This document shows, one piece after another, positions 7,790-42,438 of a DNA stretch of 64,000 bases. The notes beneath the pieces are model-generated. The model did not search any database, had not been told where the DNA came from, and worked only from the letters and a program-made list of their open reading frames with translations. The stretch is taken from NCBI GenBank assembly GCA_963714975.1, contig CAVQQD010000003.1:480001-544000 (forward strand). Reading direction: 5' to 3'. The position numbers and the translations under genes were made by a program. Within the stretch, counting starts at the first letter, position 1. Every line of letters starts with the position of its first letter. Origin of the DNA: an uncultured Gammaproteobacteria bacterium. GTDB taxonomy: Bacteria > Pseudomonadota > Gammaproteobacteria > JAURND01.

Positions 7790-7831
7790 TTGACGTCCTC
7801 CCCGCCTAAAGGGCGAGGATTCCTACTGCGG

Positions 7832-9040
7832 TTACGCAACCTGTGCGCAACTCGCTTCGGTGGGTTCTTGCTTCCTCGAGCGACCTGACTGCGTCTTCTC
7901 TCCACAAGCTAGCAAGCGGTGCCCCCGCTCTAAAATATTGATCGCGCCAACCACATCGGCATGGTGGCTATAGCCACAACGCACGCACGCAAACTCAGCT
8001 TGCGTTTTGCGATTGTCTGCACAAACGTGCTGACAGGCAGGACAGGTTCGACTGGTATTTTTCGGATCCACCGCCAGAAAAATGCCACCGTTCCACTCAA
8101 GCTTATAAGCTAACTGGCGTCGAAATTCGCCCCAACCCTGATCCAGTATGGCGCGATTTAAACCTGCCTTTTGTCTGACCTGGCGACCGTGCTGCTCACA
8201 ATTGCCTTGGGCAGATTTCGACATGGCAGCTATCTGCAAATCCTCAACACAGACGAGCGCGTGGTTTTTGCTAATCGCGGTGCTGGTTTTGTGCAGAAAA
8301 TCTTGTCTGACCTGGGCAATCGTGTTGTGAGTCTTTTGAACCCGTCTTTGGGCTTTTATCCAATTACGACTAAATTTTTTCTTACGCTTCAGGCGACGTT
8401 GATAATGCGCAAGGCGTGCTTGATGTTTTTTGAAGCTATTCGCGGGTTCGACATAGGTCCCATCACTCATCGTAGCAAAACGTGCAATACCCATATCGAT
8501 ACCCACTGGGGTAGTAGCTGCTGGCAAGGATTGACTCTCTTCACGCTCGGTCTGCACTGATACAAACCACAAGCCATTGCATTGCTTAACGATGACGTTT
8601 TTAATTTCCCCTACTACAGCACGACTGTTGCGATAGCGTATCCATCCCAACTTTGGCAGAAAAATACGGTTATTATCTTGATCCAGCTTAAACCCTTGTG
8701 GAAAACGAAAACTATCTGATGAGTGAGCTTTTTTCTTGAATTTGGGGAAAGCAGCACGGTGGGCGAAGAAGTTTTTAAATGCGAGATCAAGGTCCTTGGT
8801 GACTTGTTGCAAGGTTTGGGAAGGCGATTGTTGCAGGTAGGGCATTTCTTTTTTCCATACTAACAACCAGTGATTCATACCAAAGCTATGGGTAAACGGT
8901 TTGTTTTCGGCATAGAGCTCTTGTTGACGCGCCAATGCTAAATTCCAAACCTTACGTGCATTACCCGCAAACTGACTCATCGCGCGTTTTTGCGCACCAT
9001 TCGGCTCAATACGGAATTTAAATGCTTTCTGGATTTTCAT
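7832..9040 (-). CDS. tnpB: RNA-guided endonuclease TnpB
   Basis: [12 protein letters not shown], RuvC-I GIDMG, RuvC-II VEDL, zinc finger CPAC...CVRC, Ruv[14 protein letters not shown]. Confidence 0.96.
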
Positions 9041-9061
9041 GCGACTATTATATTCTGGTCT

Positions 9062-9143
9062 ATGCCAAACTCAATACAGTAAAGAGCGAATCCAAAACGG
9101 GTAGACACTACAGTACATTGAGCAGCAACCAAAACCCAAATAA
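9062..9143 (+). pseudogene. tnpA: Internally deleted IS200-type TnpA (HUH/Y1) remnant
   Basis: N-terminal KTGRH (9094-9108) joined directly to C-terminal QYIEQQPKPK* (9111-9143). Confidence 0.65.
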
Positions 9144-9196
9144 TCGAAGGAGTGCCTTACATCCACCATGAATGACGGGGTCTTACGGCACGATGG

Positions 9197-9320
9197 ATAA
9201 ACTGTTCAAAAGATTTTCCAAATTCTGGAGTATTTTGTGCTGGCTTGCGTTGCGCTAAATAATTAGTGACACCAATATCGAATAAATAGAATTTTTCAGT
9301 TTCTATCAGCCTTTTTTCTT
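9197..9320 (-). pseudogene. Upstream fragment of the same DUF4143 ATPase gene (5' part absent)
   Basis: KRLIETEKFYLFDIGVTNYLAQRKPAQNTPEFGKSFEQF. Confidence 0.75.
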
Positions 9321-9686: not shown

Positions 9687-11285
9687 ATGGAAACTGATCG
9701 AAAACTATTTCAATATTTAGAAAAACTAGTCAAGCAAAGCCATGAAGTTTTCTGGATTCGCAATGCTGACTATTCAAAACAACTCTATATTAATCCCGCC
9801 TATGAAACAGTTTGGGGGAGGACTTGCGAAAATTTATACCAAAACCCTGCTGAATTTATCGATACGATTCTTCCCGAAGATAGGCAAAAGCTCGAGGAAG
9901 ACATAGCGAAAAGAAATCCTGAAGTTTCTCCAGGGGATAATTTTTTTACTGCCTATCGAATAGCCCGCCCTGATGGAGAAATTCGTTGGATAGAAGATGA
10001 AAGTTTCGCCATTTTTGATGATGTAGGGCAGCACTTAGGTTTTGCCGGGACTGCGATAGATATTACTGAAAAGAAAAAGAAAGAGATTGAACTTAGCGAG
10101 GCTAAAGAAGTCGCTGAAGCTTCCGATCGGGCTAAGTCCGAGTTTATTCAAAACATGAGCCACGATGTCAAAACGCCGTTGGCGGGCATTACTTCAATGG
10201 CGGATAGGATTGGCAGGCAACTTGAGGAGCCCGAAGACCTCGAAGATAATTATGAGAATGTACAGATGATTAAAAATTCAGTCAGGGAATTGATCGAATT
10301 TTTTATGAATTGTTTAGAGATGGTGCGGATTGAAACCGGAGAGGTGGCGCTAGCCAATGAAAATTTCAATCCCCAAAAAATAATGAATCAGCTCGTCGAG
10401 ATATTGACCCCTTCCATGAAACAGAAAGGCTTAGGATTTAATGTCACTTATGATCACAATATCCCTGAAATGGTTTATGCCAGCGGGCCTGGATTTTATC
10501 GGATTCTTTTAAATTTATTAGGCAACGCGATTAAATTTACCGAAGAAGGGACGATAGCGGTGGACATTCTGTTGCAGAAAAATCCCGAGTCAGATAAGGA
10601 TGATCTTTGTTTAAAAATCCGCGATACCGGTATGGGCATTCCCCAAGAAAAAATCGCGACTATTTTCGAGCGCTTTACGCGCTTGACGCCTTCCTATGAA
10701 GGCAAATTTGAGGGCCATGGGATTGGGCTTTATATTGTGCATAAATTTGTCACCTTGATGGGAGGGAAAATTGATGTGAGCAGCGAACTGGGCAAGGGTA
10801 GTTGCTTCACCATCACCTTTCCTTTTCTACCCGCCAAGGCATTCCTTAAACCGAGAGCAGTCACGCCTAAGTTTACCAAGCTAGCTCCCCTTGGGGATGC
10901 CTCTAGTGAGGGTGAGGAGACTGGTCCGCGTATTTTGCTGGTCGAGGATAATCGGATGGCTCAAAAAGGCGTGGAATCGATACTCACGCATTTAGGGTAT
11001 AAGCTCGATATTGTGGATACAGGTAAGAAAGCCCTAGATATTTTTGAATTGGATAAATATGTGCTGATTATTACCGATATTGGATTAGATGATATGAGTG
11101 GGACGACGGTAGCAGCGCATATTCGTACTGTAGAAAAGGGTCGAAAAAATCCCGTGCCGATTGTGGCTCTGACAGCCCACAATCTTAAAAAAATTGAAGC
11201 AGCGTGTCAGGCAGCAGGCATTAATGGGGTGCTGGAAAAGCCTCTGACTGAGGAACTAGCCAAGGAGGTGCTGGATCTTTTTTGA
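9687..11285 (+). CDS. PAS-domain hybrid sensor histidine kinase/receiver
   Basis: PAS/PAC, H-box MSHDVKTPL, NLLGNAIKFT, DTGMGI, GIGL, receiver ILLVEDN...TDIGL. Confidence 0.93.
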   Translation: METDRKLFQYLEKLVKQSHEVFWIRNADYSKQLYINPAYETVWGRTCENLYQNPAEFIDTILPEDRQKLEEDIAKRNPEVSPGDNFFTAYRIARPDGEIRWIEDESFAIFDDVGQHLGFAGTAIDITEKKKKEIELSEAKEVAEASDRAKSEFIQNMSHDVKTPLAGITSMADRIGRQLEEPEDLEDNYENVQMIKNSVRELIEFFMNCLEMVRIETGEVALANENFNPQKIMNQLVEILTPSMKQKGLGFNVTYDHNIPEMVYASGPGFYRILLNLLGNAIKFTEEGTIAVDILLQKNPESDKDDLCLKIRDTGMGIPQEKIATIFERFTRLTPSYEGKFEGHGIGLYIVHKFVTLMGGKIDVSSELGKGSCFTITFPFLPAKAFLKPRAVTPKFTKLAPLGDASSEGEETGPRILLVEDNRMAQKGVESILTHLGYKLDIVDTGKKALDIFELDKYVLIITDIGLDDMSGTTVAAHIRTVEKGRKNPVPIVALTAHNLKKIEAACQAAGINGVLEKPLTEELAKEVLDLF

Positions 11286-11365
11286 AAAAGTAAAGTTCTA
11301 AGAGGTACGGATGGTGATACGAGGGAGGACCCCAGTTTAGATATGACAATTAAAGGAGGGGGCTT

Positions 11366-14640: not shown

Positions 14641-14785
14641 CCAGCAATTCCCGCTGATGCCCTGATCCCTGACGGGTCCTGCCGCTGCGGCACCCCACCG
14701 TGCTCGTTCCTGCGCGCGTTGGGGTGCCCCGCAGCCGGCGGCAGGAGACCCGGTCGGGGATCAGGGCATCAGCGGGAATTGCTGG
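14641..14785. repeat. 145-bp palindromic repeat, same family as the IS110 target
   Basis: 29-bp perfect arms CCAGCAATTCCCGCTGATGCCCTGATCCC; core shared with 41728-41850. Confidence 0.9.
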
Positions 14786-23169: not shown

Positions 23170-24669
23170 GTGCTAAACAAAATTCTATTAACACTCATTG
23201 GTTTGATTGGGTTTTATTCTTTTCTGGCTTTTGCTCAGCATCCTGCCGCTGAAGATAAATATGCTGCAGTTGCTTATCCCCCTGTGAATTATGGGGAGGG
23301 CGCTAAAGCGGAGCAAATTAAGCGAGGGGAATATTTGGTTAAAGCCGGGGATTGTATTGCCTGTCACACCACACCGGGGGGTAAACCCTTTGCTGGGGGG
23401 TTGGCCGTGGTCACTCCTTTTGGCACTATCTATTCACAGAACATTACGCCTGATCAACAAACAGGTATTGGCCGATGGTCAGATGACGATTTTGTACGGG
23501 CGCTGCGCGAAGGTATTTCACCCAGCGGCGAGTATTATTTCCCGGCCTTCCCCTATAATTATTTTAATCAGTTAAGTCGCCAAGATGCCTTAGACATCAA
23601 AGCTTATTTAGCAGCTATTCCCGCTGTTGCTGAGCAAAACCACCCCTTAGATATGCCTTGGCCATTTCGTGTGCGCTTACTCCAAAGTTTCTGGCGATTT
23701 TTGTTTTTTGATTTTGAACAGGGTGAATTTATACCCGATGATCATCAATCACCGGAATGGAATCGTGGAGCCTATTTGGTACAAGGATTAGCCCATTGTA
23801 GTCTTTGTCATTCACCATTAAATGTATTGGGGGCGGCTGAGAAAAAATACGATTTAGCGGGGGGCTTTATTGAAGGTTATCCTGCCCCAAATATTTCTGC
23901 TTCTCGTTGGAAAGAGGTACCCACCGCGAAAATTTTGCGGGTCTTCTTAGCCGATGAAAAAATTAATGGCGGAAAAGTTCAGGGACCGATGTTACAGGTT
24001 AATCACGATAGTTTGCGTTATCTCACTCCCGAAGATCTTATCGATATAGCGACTTATTTGCGGACGGTACAGAGTGCAACTCCCCCGGCTCCTAGTGTCG
24101 GTACTGGAGTAAAAGCAGGTGAAAACATTTATCAAAAATATTGTGCTGCTTGCCATATGGGTGGAGGTGGTGGCGCGCCCAAATTTGGTAATGCGGCGCA
24201 GTGGGAGCCGATTGTGAAGCAAGGAATGCCAAAGGTATACGACAATGCGATTAAGGGGATTGATGGTATGCCAGCTAAAGGCAATTGTGAAAGCTGTACC
24301 GATGAACAAATCAAAAGCGCGGTTGATTATCTAGTAGGTAAAAGCACAGGTGCGGCAGCTAAACCGACTGTTAGTGGGGCTCCTGCTGGATCTGCATTGA
24401 CTTCTTTGGTGAGAGGCAAAATCGTCTATGACAAAGTTTGCTCGGTTTGTCATGCGCAAGGGCAATTGGGGGCGCCCAAATTAGGGGATCAAAAGGCCTG
24501 GGAACCGATTTTGCATGAAAATTTAGATATTCTAGTATCACGTACTATTTATGGTTACAAGGGACATCCCGCCAAAGGGGCTTGTTATAAATGCAACGAT
24601 GCCGATATTATTTCCGCGGTGAAGTATATGGCTCAAGAAAGTGGTTTAGGCGATTATAGATTATGGTAA
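23170..24669 (+). CDS. Multiheme (four CxxCH) periplasmic cytochrome c with two c5-like domains
   Basis: CIACH, CSLCH, CAACH, CSVCH; signal peptide after GTG 23170; directly upstream of coxB. Confidence 0.9.
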   Translation: MLNKILLTLIGLIGFYSFLAFAQHPAAEDKYAAVAYPPVNYGEGAKAEQIKRGEYLVKAGDCIACHTTPGGKPFAGGLAVVTPFGTIYSQNITPDQQTGIGRWSDDDFVRALREGISPSGEYYFPAFPYNYFNQLSRQDALDIKAYLAAIPAVAEQNHPLDMPWPFRVRLLQSFWRFLFFDFEQGEFIPDDHQSPEWNRGAYLVQGLAHCSLCHSPLNVLGAAEKKYDLAGGFIEGYPAPNISASRWKEVPTAKILRVFLADEKINGGKVQGPMLQVNHDSLRYLTPEDLIDIATYLRTVQSATPPAPSVGTGVKAGENIYQKYCAACHMGGGGGAPKFGNAAQWEPIVKQGMPKVYDNAIKGIDGMPAKGNCESCTDEQIKSAVDYLVGKSTGAAAKPTVSGAPAGSALTSLVRGKIVYDKVCSVCHAQGQLGAPKLGDQKAWEPILHENLDILVSRTIYGYKGHPAKGACYKCNDADIISAVKYMAQESGLGDYRLW

Positions 24670-32679: not shown

Positions 32680-32712
32680 GTCGGGGAGCAAGGCTTCAGC
32701 GGGAATTGCTGA
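32680..32712 (-). repeat. Single arm of the IS110-target palindromic repeat family
   Basis: Minus strand reads TCAGCAATTCCCGCTGAAGCCTTGCTCCCCGAC. Confidence 0.8.
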
Positions 32713-32781: not shown

Positions 32782-34025
32782 ATGGCGAAAAAAAATATTT
32801 TTTATGCACAATCGGGTGGGGCGACTGCGGTTATTAATGCCACAGCCTGCGGATTAATTCAGACGGCACGACGTAATGCTGACCGCATTGGTAAGGTTTA
32901 TGCAGGGCAAAATGGGATTGTAGGTGCTTTGACCGGGAATTTCATTGATACTAGCCAAGAAACAGATGAGGCAATCGCCGCTTTATACCATACGCCGGCC
33001 AGTGCTTTTGGTTCTTGCCGCTATAAATTAAAGCATATAGAAGAAGATACCAGTGAATATCGAACGCTTGATTCCTGTATTTAAGGACTCACAATATAGG
33101 CTATTTTTTTTATAATGGTGGCAATGATTCACAAGATACTACTCATAAAATTTCGCAAATGAGACAACAATTAGGGTATCCTTTAATCTGCATTGGTTTA
33201 CCAAAAACCATCGATAATGATTTACCTTTTACCGATAATTGCCCGGGTTTTGGTTCAGTAGCTAAATATGTCGCTATATCCATTCGTGAGGCGAGTCTTG
33301 ATGTGGCCTCTATGGCAGCCACGTCAACGAAGGTATTTATTCTAGAAGTAATGGGGCGACATGCAGGCTGGATTGCCGCTGCTAGCGGTTTGGCGGCAGA
33401 ACAACCCGGGCGACCCACCACATATTATTCTTATTCCCCGAAAACCCGTTTGAAGTGGGTCGGTTTATTGGCCAAGTGCAGAAATCGTCAAGAAATATGG
33501 TTTTTGTTCCATTGTGGTGTCTGAAGGATTACAGACTCGGGATGGCAAATTTTTAAGCCAGTTCCGATCTTAAATGATCCTTTTGGACATACCCAACTAG
33601 GTGGGGTTGCGCCAGTAATTGCTCATTTAGTACAAAGTGAATTAGGCCATAAATGCCATTGGGCGGTGGCGGATTATTTACAACGCGTTGCGCGCCATGT
33701 TGCTTCGCAAACTGATGTTGAGCAAGCCTATGCCTTAGGTAAGTCGGTCGTGGATTTTGCTTTAACTGGAAAAAATAATATCATGCTGACGATTGATCGT
33801 TATCAAGATTCCCCTTATCAATGGGGAATTGGTGAAGTCTCTCTGGAAAAAGTAGCCAATGCGGAGACGAAAAATGCCTTTGAATTTTTTAATGCAGATG
33901 GCTTTCATATTACTGAGGAATGTCGACGCTATTTATTACCCCTGATTCAAGGAGAATCGTATCCTCCTTATGTACGGGTTGCCTCATTATCCTCGATTAC
34001 AGAAAAATTATGTTTGCAAAAATAA
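32782..34025 (+). CDS. 6-phosphofructokinase (PPi-dependent-like group), frameshifted in this sequence
   Basis: YAQSGGATAVIN, FGSCRYKL, PKTIDNDL, EVMGRHAGW, DYLQRVARH across several frames. Confidence 0.88.
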
Positions 34026-34169: not shown

Positions 34170-35387
<1,218 letters not shown>

Positions 35388-35475: not shown

Positions 35476-38292
<2,817 letters not shown>

Positions 38293-38300
<8 letters not shown>

Positions 38301-39924: not shown

Positions 39925-40392
39925 CTACGGAGAGGGCATCTGATACAGAGAGTTTTCTTGGACTTCTTCTATAATTAAATCCTCGCGTACAGATTTCATT
40001 GCGCTTATAACCCATTTAAGATCATCAAGATAGATTTTTTTGAAAAGATAAGTAAATGCTGTAACGAACAGTAGTCCTAATCCTTCCCCTGTTAAGGTCA
40101 TACTTTGCTCAGCAGCTTCGTCTAAAGCAGTGTAAGTTTTGTACATGGCATACGGGCTTGCAGTAAATAAAATTAAAAAGGGTAAAACCTGTGCTGCACT
40201 CTTAGCGGCTTGTGCCATTCTCACTTTTTTATAATGATATAGATCGCTATCAGGAAGAAAATTAATTAAGTGAATTCCTTGAACTAAGCTCTGTCTTTCT
40301 GCTGAGGTCGAATTATAAAAACGGTCGATAAAGTCTTTTTTTTGCGCTGGACTGTCCCATAACTGCTTAAACTTATACCCCTCCTCCCCAGG
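39925..40392 (-). pseudogene. Open frame with two C-terminal TM helices; probable 3' part of the gene broken by the repeat/IS110
   Basis: Frame is open from 40392 (PGEEGYKFKQLWDS...) to the stop at 39925 and begins right at the repeat boundary. Confidence 0.55.
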
Positions 40393-40454
40393 CTATCCGA
40401 TGCACATAAATTCGGTCAGCAATTGTAAGTCACCACTTGTGTTAAAGTAGTTCC

Positions 40455-40620
40455 TAAGAGAGAAAAGGCTCCCTCGCAAGAAGGAGCCTGCGGGCGTGAG
40501 CGACCGGTCAGCAATAGGTTATACAGCCGTGGGAATCAAGGTACTCTAGCCCTAACTCTCGATACGTTTGAATAGTTCATTTGGGACTAAAGCTCCCGCT
40601 TACAATCGTAAATATCGAGG
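40455..40620 (+). ncRNA. IS110 bridge RNA (5' stem-loop, target-binding loop, donor-binding loop); ends approximate
   Basis: Guides CGGTCAGCAAT 40505-40515, GGGAAT 40531-40536, ATAGTTCAT 40572-40580 and CTTACAAT 40599-40606 match the target and donor, each pair inside stems. Confidence 0.88.
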
Positions 40621-40625
40621 TTACC

Positions 40626-41579
40626 ATGAAATTGTATAGTTCTTTTATCGGTATGGATATAGGGAAATTTAATTTTGTTGTTGCCTTACATGGAGAAAAG
40701 ATCACGAAAGAGTATCCAAATAGCGCTGAGGGCATTAAGGATTTTTTAAAAGATTATGAAGAAATTTTACCCACAGCATTTTGTGTGGTTGAAACGACAG
40801 GGGGTCATGAAAAAATTTTGTTACTGGCCCTGCGTTCTAATAGATATGCAGTCCATCGTGCAGATACTAGGAAAGTAAAAAACTTTATCCATTCCTATGG
40901 TAAAAAGGCAAAAACAGATGCATTAGACGCTAAAGGACTAGCCCATTATAGTTATGAAAGGTATCAGGAATTAGATATTTATGAACCTCCTGATGAAACG
41001 GATATAGCACTTTTTACATTGGTAATGCGTAAAAATGATTTAACAGAGATGCTGGTTGCTGAAAAAAATCGCCTTAAATCGCCTAATAATCATGAAATAG
41101 TAGAAATAAGTTGTAAAAAAATGATTACCATGCTCTCGGAAGAAATCAAATTGCTCAATGAGAAAATAAATGAGCTGATTGAAGGTGTACCTTATTTAAG
41201 GGAAAAAAGGAAAGTTTTAAAGAGCATTCCAGGGATTGGTGATGTGCTGAGCTGTGAATTGATTACTTTATTGCCTGAACTAGGAACACTGGATAGGAGA
41301 AAAATAGCTGCTTTAGCTGGGTTAGCTCCTCAAGCAAATGAGAGTGGCAAATACAAAGGATACAGGCGCTGTGGTTATGGTCGTCAAGGAGTGAAGCCAA
41401 AATTATTTCTCGCTGCCATGGCGGCAAGGAATTCAAATTCGCATCTAAAAGTCTTTTATGAAAAATTGGTTGGGTCAGGTAAAAAGAAAATGGTGGCTTT
41501 AACCGCTTTAATGAGAAAAATTTTAGTCATCGCCAATGCAAAGGTAAGAGATTTCAATAAAGAATATAATTTGGCTTGA
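40626..41579 (+). CDS. IS110-family DEDD recombinase/transposase
   Basis: GMDIGK, VVETTG, KTDALDA (DEDD); SIPGIG; AGLAPQANESGK (catalytic Ser region); ALMRK. Confidence 0.96.
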   Translation: MKLYSSFIGMDIGKFNFVVALHGEKITKEYPNSAEGIKDFLKDYEEILPTAFCVVETTGGHEKILLLALRSNRYAVHRADTRKVKNFIHSYGKKAKTDALDAKGLAHYSYERYQELDIYEPPDETDIALFTLVMRKNDLTEMLVAEKNRLKSPNNHEIVEISCKKMITMLSEEIKLLNEKINELIEGVPYLREKRKVLKSIPGIGDVLSCELITLLPELGTLDRRKIAALAGLAPQANESGKYKGYRRCGYGRQGVKPKLFLAAMAARNSNSHLKVFYEKLVGSGKKKMVALTALMRKILVIANAKVRDFNKEYNLA

Positions 41580-41871
41580 AAGAGCACCAAGGAGGGTGCG
41601 GTCAAGCCAAATCGACAAGCCCGCTCAGCGGGCGCGTCAGTAGGGAGAAACCCTAGTTTAGGCTGGGGTTTATAGACTTGTATGCTTAAAAATTTTATTT
41701 TTTTAAAATTTTTAAGACATAGTTGATTCCCGCTGAAACCTTGCTCCCCCGACGGGTCCTGCCGCGCTGCGGCCACCCCATCGTGCTCGTTCCTGCGCGC
41801 GTTGGGGTCCCCGCCAGCGGCAGCAAGGCTTCAGCGGGAATTGCTGACCGAATTTGTGTGCATCGGATAGC

Positions 41872-42438
41872 TTCATAGAGAGCACCTGTGTGATTGGGAT
41901 TCGTTATGAGTACATTACAGTAGTGGTTTATTGCGCTGGCAGGAGACGATAGCTTTCCTAGATGATATTCATTCTCAACATGATTCGAGTTTTGCTGCCA
42001 AATATTCCAAACTACCGAAGGTGGGTGATTAAAAATATTGGAATCTTCAGGAATTTTAGAGGCTTCGCCTATACCAATCAAAAAAGCTAATCGACTTGTG
42101 GCATCAATATCGCCGGGATTTTTTCTCAAAACAGCTCGGCAAAGATCCGCTCCTTTTCTTCCTTTTATAGTCAAATAATCGGCTTTACGCCGTTCTGGGT
42201 AATCTTCAGCAATATTTTTTGGCGAGGGTGTTTCCTCTTCTTGAGAGTTGGGTAGAATTTCCTTAGTTTCTTTGATGCGATTTTTCCATAGGGGATGCTC
42301 CTGCTGCTCACTAAAAATTTTCGTATTTTTTGAAATACGAGCCATTACAGCTAAGTCTCGGTCAGCAAGAAAATCATAGACATAAAGCTGCGGATCAACC
42401 GCCAGCTCACTCAAGTGTTTTGGTTTATCTTCAGCCAT
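41872..42438 (-). pseudogene. 5' part of an F-box-like protein gene that runs into the repeat/IS110
   Basis: N-terminal LSELAVDPQLYVYDFLADRDLAVMARISK...W; the frame reads into the repeat after 41872. Confidence 0.5.

Follow-up and report, generated by a model that had tools for sequence, protein, structure and literature searches.

A predicted bridge RNA seems to direct an AT-core IS110-family insertion sequence to the ends of a lineage-specific MITE-like repeat

That insertion sequences (IS) of the IS110/IS1111 type land in repetitive extragenic palindromic (REP) sequences, in transposable elements of the miniature inverted-repeat class (MITEs), and in the inverted repeats of transposons is already well documented. 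IS4321/IS5075 and IS1383 are reportedly of the last kind and land in the terminal inverted repeats of autonomous transposons. IS621 from Escherichia coli combines a two-domain recombinase of the DEDD and serine type with a 5' bridge RNA that has a target and a donor loop, and the report on it places its target in the dispersed palindromic REP repeat, of which many copies are empty (PMC11208160). In Pseudomonas putida a REP target is described for ISPpu10, often as convergent pairs less than 200 bp apart, with some copies occupied (bioRxiv 10.64898/2026.03.19.712850), and ISPpu9 is described as another IS110-family occupant of REP sequences (PMC12288879). For IS1111 of Coxiella burnetii the reported hot-spot is a palindrome in QMITE2, a MITE of 150-190 bp of which empty copies remain (PMC5896051). 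The present analysis concerns an IS110-family element found within a palindromic repeat in a 64,000-nucleotide stretch of DNA (the window) from an uncultured gammaproteobacterium. The window corresponds to C3:480001-544000 of a 2.56-Mb genome (G000) in 3 contigs with 43-45% G+C. Coordinates without a prefix are window positions, and G000:C1, C2, and C3 denote the contigs of the host genome.

The new element resembles IS621 in its two-domain DEDD and serine recombinase, in a predicted 5' bridge RNA with target and donor loops, and in a target within a dispersed palindromic repeat, so that an analogy to IS621 and REP drawn by an initial annotation of this DNA is apt. It differs from IS621 in having AT rather than CT as core, TCAGCA-AT-TCCC rather than ATCAGGCCTAC as target, and a MITE-like repeat of 133-145 bp rather than a short REP as landing place, and it is known from its sequence alone. 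With ISPpu10 and ISPpu9 it shares a repeated intergenic palindrome as target, only some copies of which are occupied; for ISPpu10 a stem-loop on the 5' side has been shown to gate insertion, whereas a structural role is a possibility here. Like IS1111 it is a member of the IS110/IS1111 superfamily landing in a MITE palindrome, but IS1111 belongs to the other subgroup, and the repeat described here is absent from the 20 related genomes searched. Unlike IS4321/IS5075 and IS1383 it is found in a MITE-like repeat instead of an autonomous transposon.

The element is very probably an active-looking member of the IS110 family whose bridge RNA specifies the 12-bp sequence TCAGCA-AT-TCCC in the terminal repeat of a lineage-specific MITE-like repeat. 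The observations behind this reading come from the anatomy of the element, its copies and their flanks, the guide matches, the covariation of guides and flanks in homologues, and a census of sites. The parts of the insertion sequence are as follows.

40424 to 41727, plus strand: IS110-family insertion sequence, 1304 bp with one copy of the AT core, delimited by its BLAST copies and the divergence of their flanks
40626 to 41579, plus strand: transposase/recombinase gene, 317 amino acids, with PF01548 and PF02371
41718 to 41727, plus strand: right end of the IS, made up of the left donor CATAGTTG and the AT core, read from the sequence; relatives keep CAT(A/G)GTTG-AT

The transposase contains both the DEDD (RuvC-like) N-terminal domain and the C-terminal transposase domain (PF01548, E 3.9e-19, 69.4 bits with a cut-off of 29; PF02371, E 9.6e-14, 52 bits with a cut-off of 21.3). 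Its top match among solved structures is ISCro4 (PDB 9t56; E 9.4e-32, residues 6-304), a comparison made by sequence match alone, and the IS621 transposase (8wt6, E 4.6e-29), like that of ISCro4, can be aligned with it along the full length. In the alignment GMDIG, VVETTG, KTDALDA, and NESGKY fall opposite those parts of IS621 which contain the reported catalytic residues. For IS621 these are given as D11, E60, D102, D105, and S241 (PMC11208158), a numbering from which that of the PDB chain seems shifted by 2. The predicted catalytic residues of the new enzyme, D11, E57, D98, D101, and S240, align to IDTA, IEATG, KTDTVDA, and ESGS of IS621. The 5' non-coding region has about 200 nt (40424-40625) and contains all four guides, and the 3' non-coding region has about 147 nt. 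According to PMC11187229 the longer non-coding region lies upstream of the gene in the IS110 subgroup and downstream in the IS1111 subgroup, where the guide RNA is also downstream and the inverted repeats are subterminal. The element is assigned to the IS110 subgroup because the longer of its non-coding regions precedes the transposase gene. Among the 25 inverted repeats listed, out of 37, none pairs both ends of the IS. The AT core is found at both junctions in every copy, and ATT at both junctions leaves the boundary ambiguous over 3 nt. On every criterion for the IS110 family and its IS110 subgroup that could be run, the sequence agrees with membership.

A BLAST search of the genome with the IS yielded, besides the copy in the window, three full or interrupted copies with 99.75-100% identity and one 162-bp fragment.

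C3:459658: full copy, 99.9% identical
C2:68586: full copy, 100% identical
C3:402656-405375: copy split in the 3' non-coding hairpin region by an IS3-family element
G000:C3:403869-405270: this IS3-family element, 1414 bp, with a 285-amino-acid integrase-like frame and three copies in the genome
G000:C3:400239: left-end fragment, 162 bp, 96% identical

The left flanks of the five copies read CGGTCAGCAAT, AGTCCAGCAAT, AGGACAGCAAT, TCATCAGCAAT, and TTAGCAGCAAT, each followed by T across the junction, and the four available right flanks begin with CCCGCTGA (twice), CCCGCTCT, and CCCGGTGA. CAGCAAT/T is thus found at the left junction of all five copies and a CCCG continuation in all four with a right flank. 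Since the flanks are unrelated between copies beyond about 12 bp, the boundaries of the IS are fixed and the common requirement appears to be CAGCAAT-TCCCG and not a 15-mer. The initial annotation had proposed to look at the flanks of further copies; all are at CAGCAAT/T and none at an unrelated sequence. The guide regions are identical in the four long copies.

The 5' non-coding region contains candidate guides for both sides of the target and of the donor in the order left target, right target, left donor, right donor.

40466 to 40489, plus strand: 5' hairpin ahead of the two guide loops, from folds
40492 to 40552, plus strand: target-binding loop with three short stems, an internal loop, and a distal hairpin, from folds and RNAalifold
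40505 to 40507, plus strand: conserved scaffold CGG directly 5' of the left target guide, from the homologue comparison
40508 to 40515, plus strand: left target guide (LTG) TCAGCAAT, 8 programmable nt, from flank identity and covariation
40531 to 40536, plus strand: right target guide (RTG) GGGAAT, reverse complement of AT-TCCC, from an anchored match
40553 to 40623, plus strand: donor-binding loop, from fold and RNAalifold
40572 to 40580, plus strand: left donor guide (LDG) ATAGTTCAT, matching the IS right end ATAGTTGAT with one mismatch beside the core
40599 to 40606, plus strand: right donor guide (RDG) CTTACAAT, which at the IS left end has AT-TGTAAG as its reverse complement

The 11-mer CGGTCAGCAAT is present twice, once in the flank to the left of the IS (40413-40423) and once within it (40505-40515). 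This anchored LTG match of 11 nt to the left flank through AT was reached by none of 5000 shuffles. The corresponding numbers were 275 of 5000 for the 6-nt match of the RTG, 133 for the 9-nt match of the LDG with at most one mismatch, and 11 for the 8-nt match of the RDG; all four anchored matches jointly were reached by none. In IS621 the left guides are described as identical to the top strand and the right guides as complementary to it, with the core covered (PMC11208160). The guides found here follow the same strand logic, the left ones pairing with the bottom strand and the right ones with the top strand, core included. The target-binding loop was obtained in an unconstrained fold, in a guide-constrained fold, and in the RNAalifold consensus of five homologues. 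From the five homologous non-coding regions RNAalifold proposed, unprompted, two modules of stem, internal loop, and hairpin with the guides in the loops. Compensatory double changes occur in 9 of its 23 pairs, and the single-sequence folds agree with these modules.

Comparison with relatives carries the assignment further. In a class-wide sample transposase relatives at E <= 1e-70 were found in 6 of 399 other scored genomes, with 47-57% identity. Two were dropped before the comparison, one (G074) for a contig that was too short and one (G130) for its misplacement in the alignment, which left four relatives with transposases 51-57% identical. Their guides and flanks are given below together with those of the element itself; lower-case letters are as in the alignment of the flanks.

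Own element: left guide TCAGCAAT, flank cggTCAGCAAT; right guide GGGAAT, flank AT-TCCC
G054: left guide ATAGCTAT, flank ttTAGCTAT; right guide TAGAAT, flank AT-TCTA
G166: left guide CTCGCAAT, flank cCTCGCAAT; right guide CGTCAT, flank AT-GACG
G205: left guide GCAATCAT, flank cgGCAATCAT; right guide GTGTTAAT, flank AT-TAACAC
G294: left guide TACGACAT, flank taACGACAT; right guide ATAGAT, flank AT-CTAT

Both target guides shift in step with the flanks at homologous scaffold slots in all four relatives, whose donor ends (TGTAAGT ... CAT(A/G)GTTG-AT) and right donor guide are conserved. Such a pattern amounts to natural reprogramming across relatives. The match to the flank ends after 7-8 nt in the four relatives. 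The scaffold 5' of the left guide is GCGACCGK (ACGATCGT in G166) and matches the flank in none of them; at the CGG positions C and G are invariant and the third base is G or T in five homologues with unrelated targets. By this comparison AT is the core, the left guide has 7-8 programmable nt, and the bases 5' of it are scaffold. As CGG is conserved scaffold, its identity to the flank in the window is a coincidence of that particular repeat copy. Of the 11-nt guide put forward by the initial annotation, the 8 nt TCAGCAAT therefore stand as programmable, while CGG belongs to the scaffold.

The flanks themselves are repeated in all three multi-copy relatives, and for this reason repeat targeting seems to be common in the subfamily. 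At two loci of G166 (L042 and L039) a second, solitary right-end word followed by the same right target (CAACATAGTTGAT, then GACGG) lies about 40 nt past the right end of the IS; this word may be a footprint or a piece of the G166 target repeat. A protein search gave 6452 homologues at E <= 1e-30, of which the nearest, encoded on short contigs from metagenomes, have 87, 81, and 79% identity. Among 40 related genomes the best transposase match had 36% identity, and scans of genome and metagenome contigs gave distant partial relatives alone (31-50% identity over 40-110 residues), which were not used.

The IS lies in a member of a palindromic repeat family.

40392 to 40424, plus strand: left outer arm of 33 nt, which the IS severs from the repeat; 97% complementarity with 41839-41871
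40416 to 40423, plus strand: left target (LT) TCAGCAAT, identical to the LTG, with the AT core at 40422-40423
41728 to 41871, plus strand: remainder of the repeat with the right target TCCC (41728-41731), a GC-rich interior, and the right inner and outer arms
41836 to 41847, minus strand: exact 12-bp target of the right arm, unoccupied, part of a 15-mer at 41836-41850
14642 to 14784, no strand assigned: intact 143-bp family member with two empty targets (G000:C3:494642-494784)
32701 to 32712, minus strand: exact 12-bp target, unoccupied, within a partial copy of the repeat (G000:C3:512715, minus)

The inner arms (41726-41748 and 41819-41841) have 23 nt and are 91% complementary. Removal of the IS in silico restores a palindromic element of 176 bp (33 plus 143 bp), in agreement with the initial view that the IS splits the left arm of such a palindrome. 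The perfect unused minus-strand target which this view placed in the right arm was likewise found, as the exact 15-mer at 41836-41850. Both targets of the member at 14642-14784 match at 11 of 12 positions, with C at the first. Exact CAGCAATTCCCGCTGA occurs at 14642 (plus), 14784 (minus), and 32711 (minus), with weaker matches at 23612 and 30762. Six target matches with at most three mismatches occur in the window, where 0.69 were expected and none of 100 shuffles reached six. In the whole genome the restored element gave 88 BLAST matches merging to 53 loci, and a second search gave 63 repeat matches; none of the 20 related genomes searched contained the family.

The core element has imperfect terminal inverted repeats of 14-16 bp, CAGCAATTCCCGCT followed by GA or CT, and a GC-rich interior. 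From terminal repeat to terminal repeat its modal length is 133-145 bp, with shorter forms of 85-89 bp and longer ones of about 160 bp or more, and roughly twenty arms have an extra outer shell GCTATCCGATGCACACAAATTCGGT. The IS target falls exactly in the terminal repeat, hence a full element has two inverted sites. The family has the MITE traits of being short, non-coding, and multi-copy with terminal inverted repeats. It is called only MITE-like because no evident direct repeats (target-site duplications) were seen around the 16 elements listed, and no autonomous parent was found, none of seven longer terminal-repeat pairs enclosing repeated or transposase-like sequence. The hallmarks of REP sequences and bacterial interspersed mosaic elements (BIMEs) are a GTAG or CGTC tag on palindromes 20-40 nt long, together with a gene for a cognate REP-associated tyrosine transposase (RAYT, a Y1 transposase); in comparison the repeat units found here are longer and composite. 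The genome contains three near-identical 142-codon frames for a Y1 transposase (PF01797; C2:659197-659559, C2:509016-509378, and C1:106334-106696), two of them with one in-frame TAG, which look like copies of an IS200-type element. On the minus strand, a 247-codon open reading frame (ORF) at 41695-42438 without a Pfam or NCBIfam match passes from a unique part (about 41872 and above) across the right arm and into the end of the IS, its last 60 or so codons being repeat-encoded.

Both the IS and the palindromes look like mobile repeats and are found together, which might suggest that the palindromes are carried by or derived from the IS, or that the repeat inserted around a resident IS. Such a secondary association is scarcely tenable: the IS ends (TGTAAGT ... 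CATAGTTG) have no likeness to the repeat, the flanks differ between IS copies beyond about 12 bp, the IS is missing from most of the 53 repeat loci, and joining the flanks restores an uninterrupted family member.

For the census, sites in the genome which keep the proximal 11 nt CAGCAATTCCC were grouped by their mismatches in the distal CGGT.

No CGGT mismatch: 1 occupied, 7 empty
One mismatch: 0 occupied, 1 empty
Two mismatches: 1 occupied, 5 empty
Three mismatches: 2 occupied, 6 empty
Four mismatches: 1 occupied (the 162-bp fragment, with right flank lost and a differing guide), 17 empty

Thirty-six CAGCAATTCCC sites are empty (7 perfect 15-mers and 29 others) and four to five are occupied, in keeping with the initial picture, in which a bridge-RNA element of the IS110 family targets a family of dispersed palindromic repeats and leaves most of its copies empty. 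The same annotation took the full 11-mer CGGTCAGCAAT as guide, with a perfect match required and the variant sites empty through their mismatches, and the single occupied site in the window is indeed the one with 11-nt identity. In a window with one IS copy this is trivial. Genome-wide the five occupied sites have 0, 3, 2, 3, and 4 mismatches at CGGT, so that four of five copies mismatch there while seven perfect 15-mers are empty, and the four long copies share an identical guide region. Of the 8 sites with CGGT one is occupied, and of the 33 lacking it four are, rates which are indistinguishable. The annotation had proposed to tabulate occupancy against guide mismatch and held that independence of the two would speak against it; for the CGGT bases independence is what was found. 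Together with the scaffold bases invariant or G/T in five homologues and the flank match of 7-8 nt in four relatives, this makes a required 11-nt guide very improbable, and guide match does not, as had been claimed, explain occupancy. The near-targets cited at 14641, 14785, and 32712 are real copies, but they are as good as sites occupied elsewhere, that at 32701-32712 being an exact 12-mer.

With the 12-bp definition of the site 14 exact sites are empty and two occupied, and two more occupied sites differ at the first position alone. Sixteen sites with CGGT and one mismatch in the proximal 11 nt are all empty, 10 of them being a CCC-to-CC variant. The census fits a requirement for the proximal bases, with weak evidence at five insertions. 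As judged from these sites, the first position of the left target tolerates a mismatch and CGG has no detectable part in site choice. Open reading frames of at least 150 amino acids, called mechanically, cover 81% of the genome and hold 14 of the 36 empty sites and none of the five occupied left junctions, a placement outside long reading frames which fits the idea of a safe harbour.

Besides the guides, the recombinase might read the structure of the palindrome DNA, so that repeat context would help to choose sites. The target is a small palindrome, TCAGC-AATTCCC-GCTGA, inside a long element able to form a hairpin, all four insertions with judgeable context are in ends of the repeat family, and about 8 of the 36 empty CAGCAATTCCC sites have no GCT continuation of the family, no such site being occupied. 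A stem-loop at the REP target is the precedent described for ISPpu10 (bioRxiv 10.64898/2026.03.19.712850). The small stem is, however, imperfect at two of four occupied sites (GCTCT and GGTGA), and the numbers are too small to tell; dual recognition of this kind is unlikely, though it keeps a real if small chance.

For targeting by the bridge RNA to the repeat ends, the following course is proposed by homology with IS621. The IS would excise as a circle joining CATAGTTG-AT-TGTAAG, the joined ends matched by the guides of the donor-binding loop. The bridge RNA, if made as in IS621, would pair with both DNAs, its donor loop taking the circle junction and its target loop the repeat end. There the 8-nt left guide UCAGCAAU and the 6-nt right guide GGGAAU would together specify TCAGCA-AT-TCCC, and the recombinase would exchange strands at the AT core by DEDD and serine catalysis. 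With the 12-bp site in its terminal inverted repeat CAGCAATTCCCGCT(GA/CT), each repeat offers two inverted landing sites, mostly outside long ORFs. Most sites are empty, which the low copy number and recent spread of the IS would explain.

Several points weigh against this account. The occupancy statistics are almost powerless at five insertions. No bridge-RNA family was found with Rfam 15, neither in a permissive search of 40000-42200 nor at the gathering threshold in the whole window, and the assignment of the RNA therefore rests on analogy and on the alignment of five sequences. The lone Rfam match, an internal ribosome entry site, is spurious. The LDG mismatches the donor at the base adjacent to the core, and in G166 it leaves the core uncovered. 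A candidate promoter at the circle junction (TTGATT, an 18-nt spacer, and TAAAGT, with TG) is weak and comes from a crude scan, which gave no equivalent promoter at that position in the integrated form. Among sequencing runs the region was found in small shares alone (at most 0.13), in contigs of soil metagenomes and in no RNA run; four of these runs contained short pieces of IS and repeat and no circle junction or excision joint, a result uninformative either way on activity and on habitat. Target variants which differ by 1 nt in a homopolymer (CCC versus CC) may partly be sequencing errors; caution is due because housekeeping genes nearby are frameshifted. Between 32782 and 38300 three such genes are split into adjacent ORFs, caused by indel errors in the assembly or by gene decay.

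32782-33084, 33159-33524, and 33666-34025: PPi-phosphofructokinase, three pieces
34271-34564 and 34549-34947: exodeoxyribonuclease III (xth), two pieces
35476-36045 and 36195-38300: isoleucine--tRNA ligase (ileS), two pieces

The 162-bp fragment is a decayed variant with six differing positions, three of them within guide slots. Its left guide GCAGCAAT (T to G) equals its own flank GCAGCAAT over exactly 8 nt, with a mismatch to be expected for the main variant. The right guide of the fragment, GAGAAT, would read AT-TCTC, the right flank being lost, and its LDG has A beside the core in place of the C of the main variant, both mismatching the G of the donor. Terminal-repeat variants G-CAGCAATTCTC exist, empty, at C2:510436 and C3:55285, and the two target-guide changes of the fragment together fit the sub-variant G-CAGCAAT-TCTC, which is empty at these two other loci. 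As a single observation, the variant points in the same direction as the covariation across genomes. Truncation of the fragment by recombination at its own LDG DNA was considered and rejected, the break being 7 nt past AT.

A second, unrelated IS110-family element (IS-B) of about 1225 bp, with a transposase about 30% identical to the first, is present in four full copies and one partial copy, among them occupied copies at G000:C3:467741-468963, C3:~329121-330355, and C2:~654146-655383. Its core is CT, and its 5' non-coding region contains four guides of its own, in the order TGACATCCT, GAGGAG, GACGGTATCT, and ACAAG. Three of its four full copies are found at TTGACNTC-CT-CCYCGCC, a site about 10 nt inside the end on the 3' side of tnpB of a 1.4-kb TnpB-only element of the IS605 family (PF01385, PF07282, PF12323). 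In the window an unoccupied copy of this TnpB-only element (7790-9202) has an empty IS-B target at about 7790-7806. The end just downstream of tnpB presumably encodes the guide RNA of TnpB.

Elsewhere in the window, about 1.19 kb (10107-11290) inside the ORF of a hybrid sensor kinase (9687-11285) recurs five times elsewhere in the genome with 85-92% identity, probably as part of a paralogous kinase family.

Among the documented cases compared here the element stands out by its AT core and by its new, lineage-specific repeat as target, though AT-core relatives may already be tabulated in PMC11208160 and PMC11187229. The locus is less a discovery than a clean example from nature. It provides an AT-core subfamily with conserved donor ends and five naturally reprogrammed pairs of guide and target for studies of programmability, and about 40 natural sites with five insertions form a small natural read-out in one genome. 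That an apparent guide match of 11 nt resolves into 8 nt of guide and 3 nt of scaffold calls for caution when targets are deduced from a single locus. A more tentative and rather doubtful extension is that guide RNA and repeat ends diversify together in one genome, while a second bridge-RNA IS harbours in parallel in the end of a TnpB element. If true, a bridge RNA would have been reprogrammed naturally from one sub-family of landing pads to a different one, and one RNA-guided transposon would be harbouring in another.

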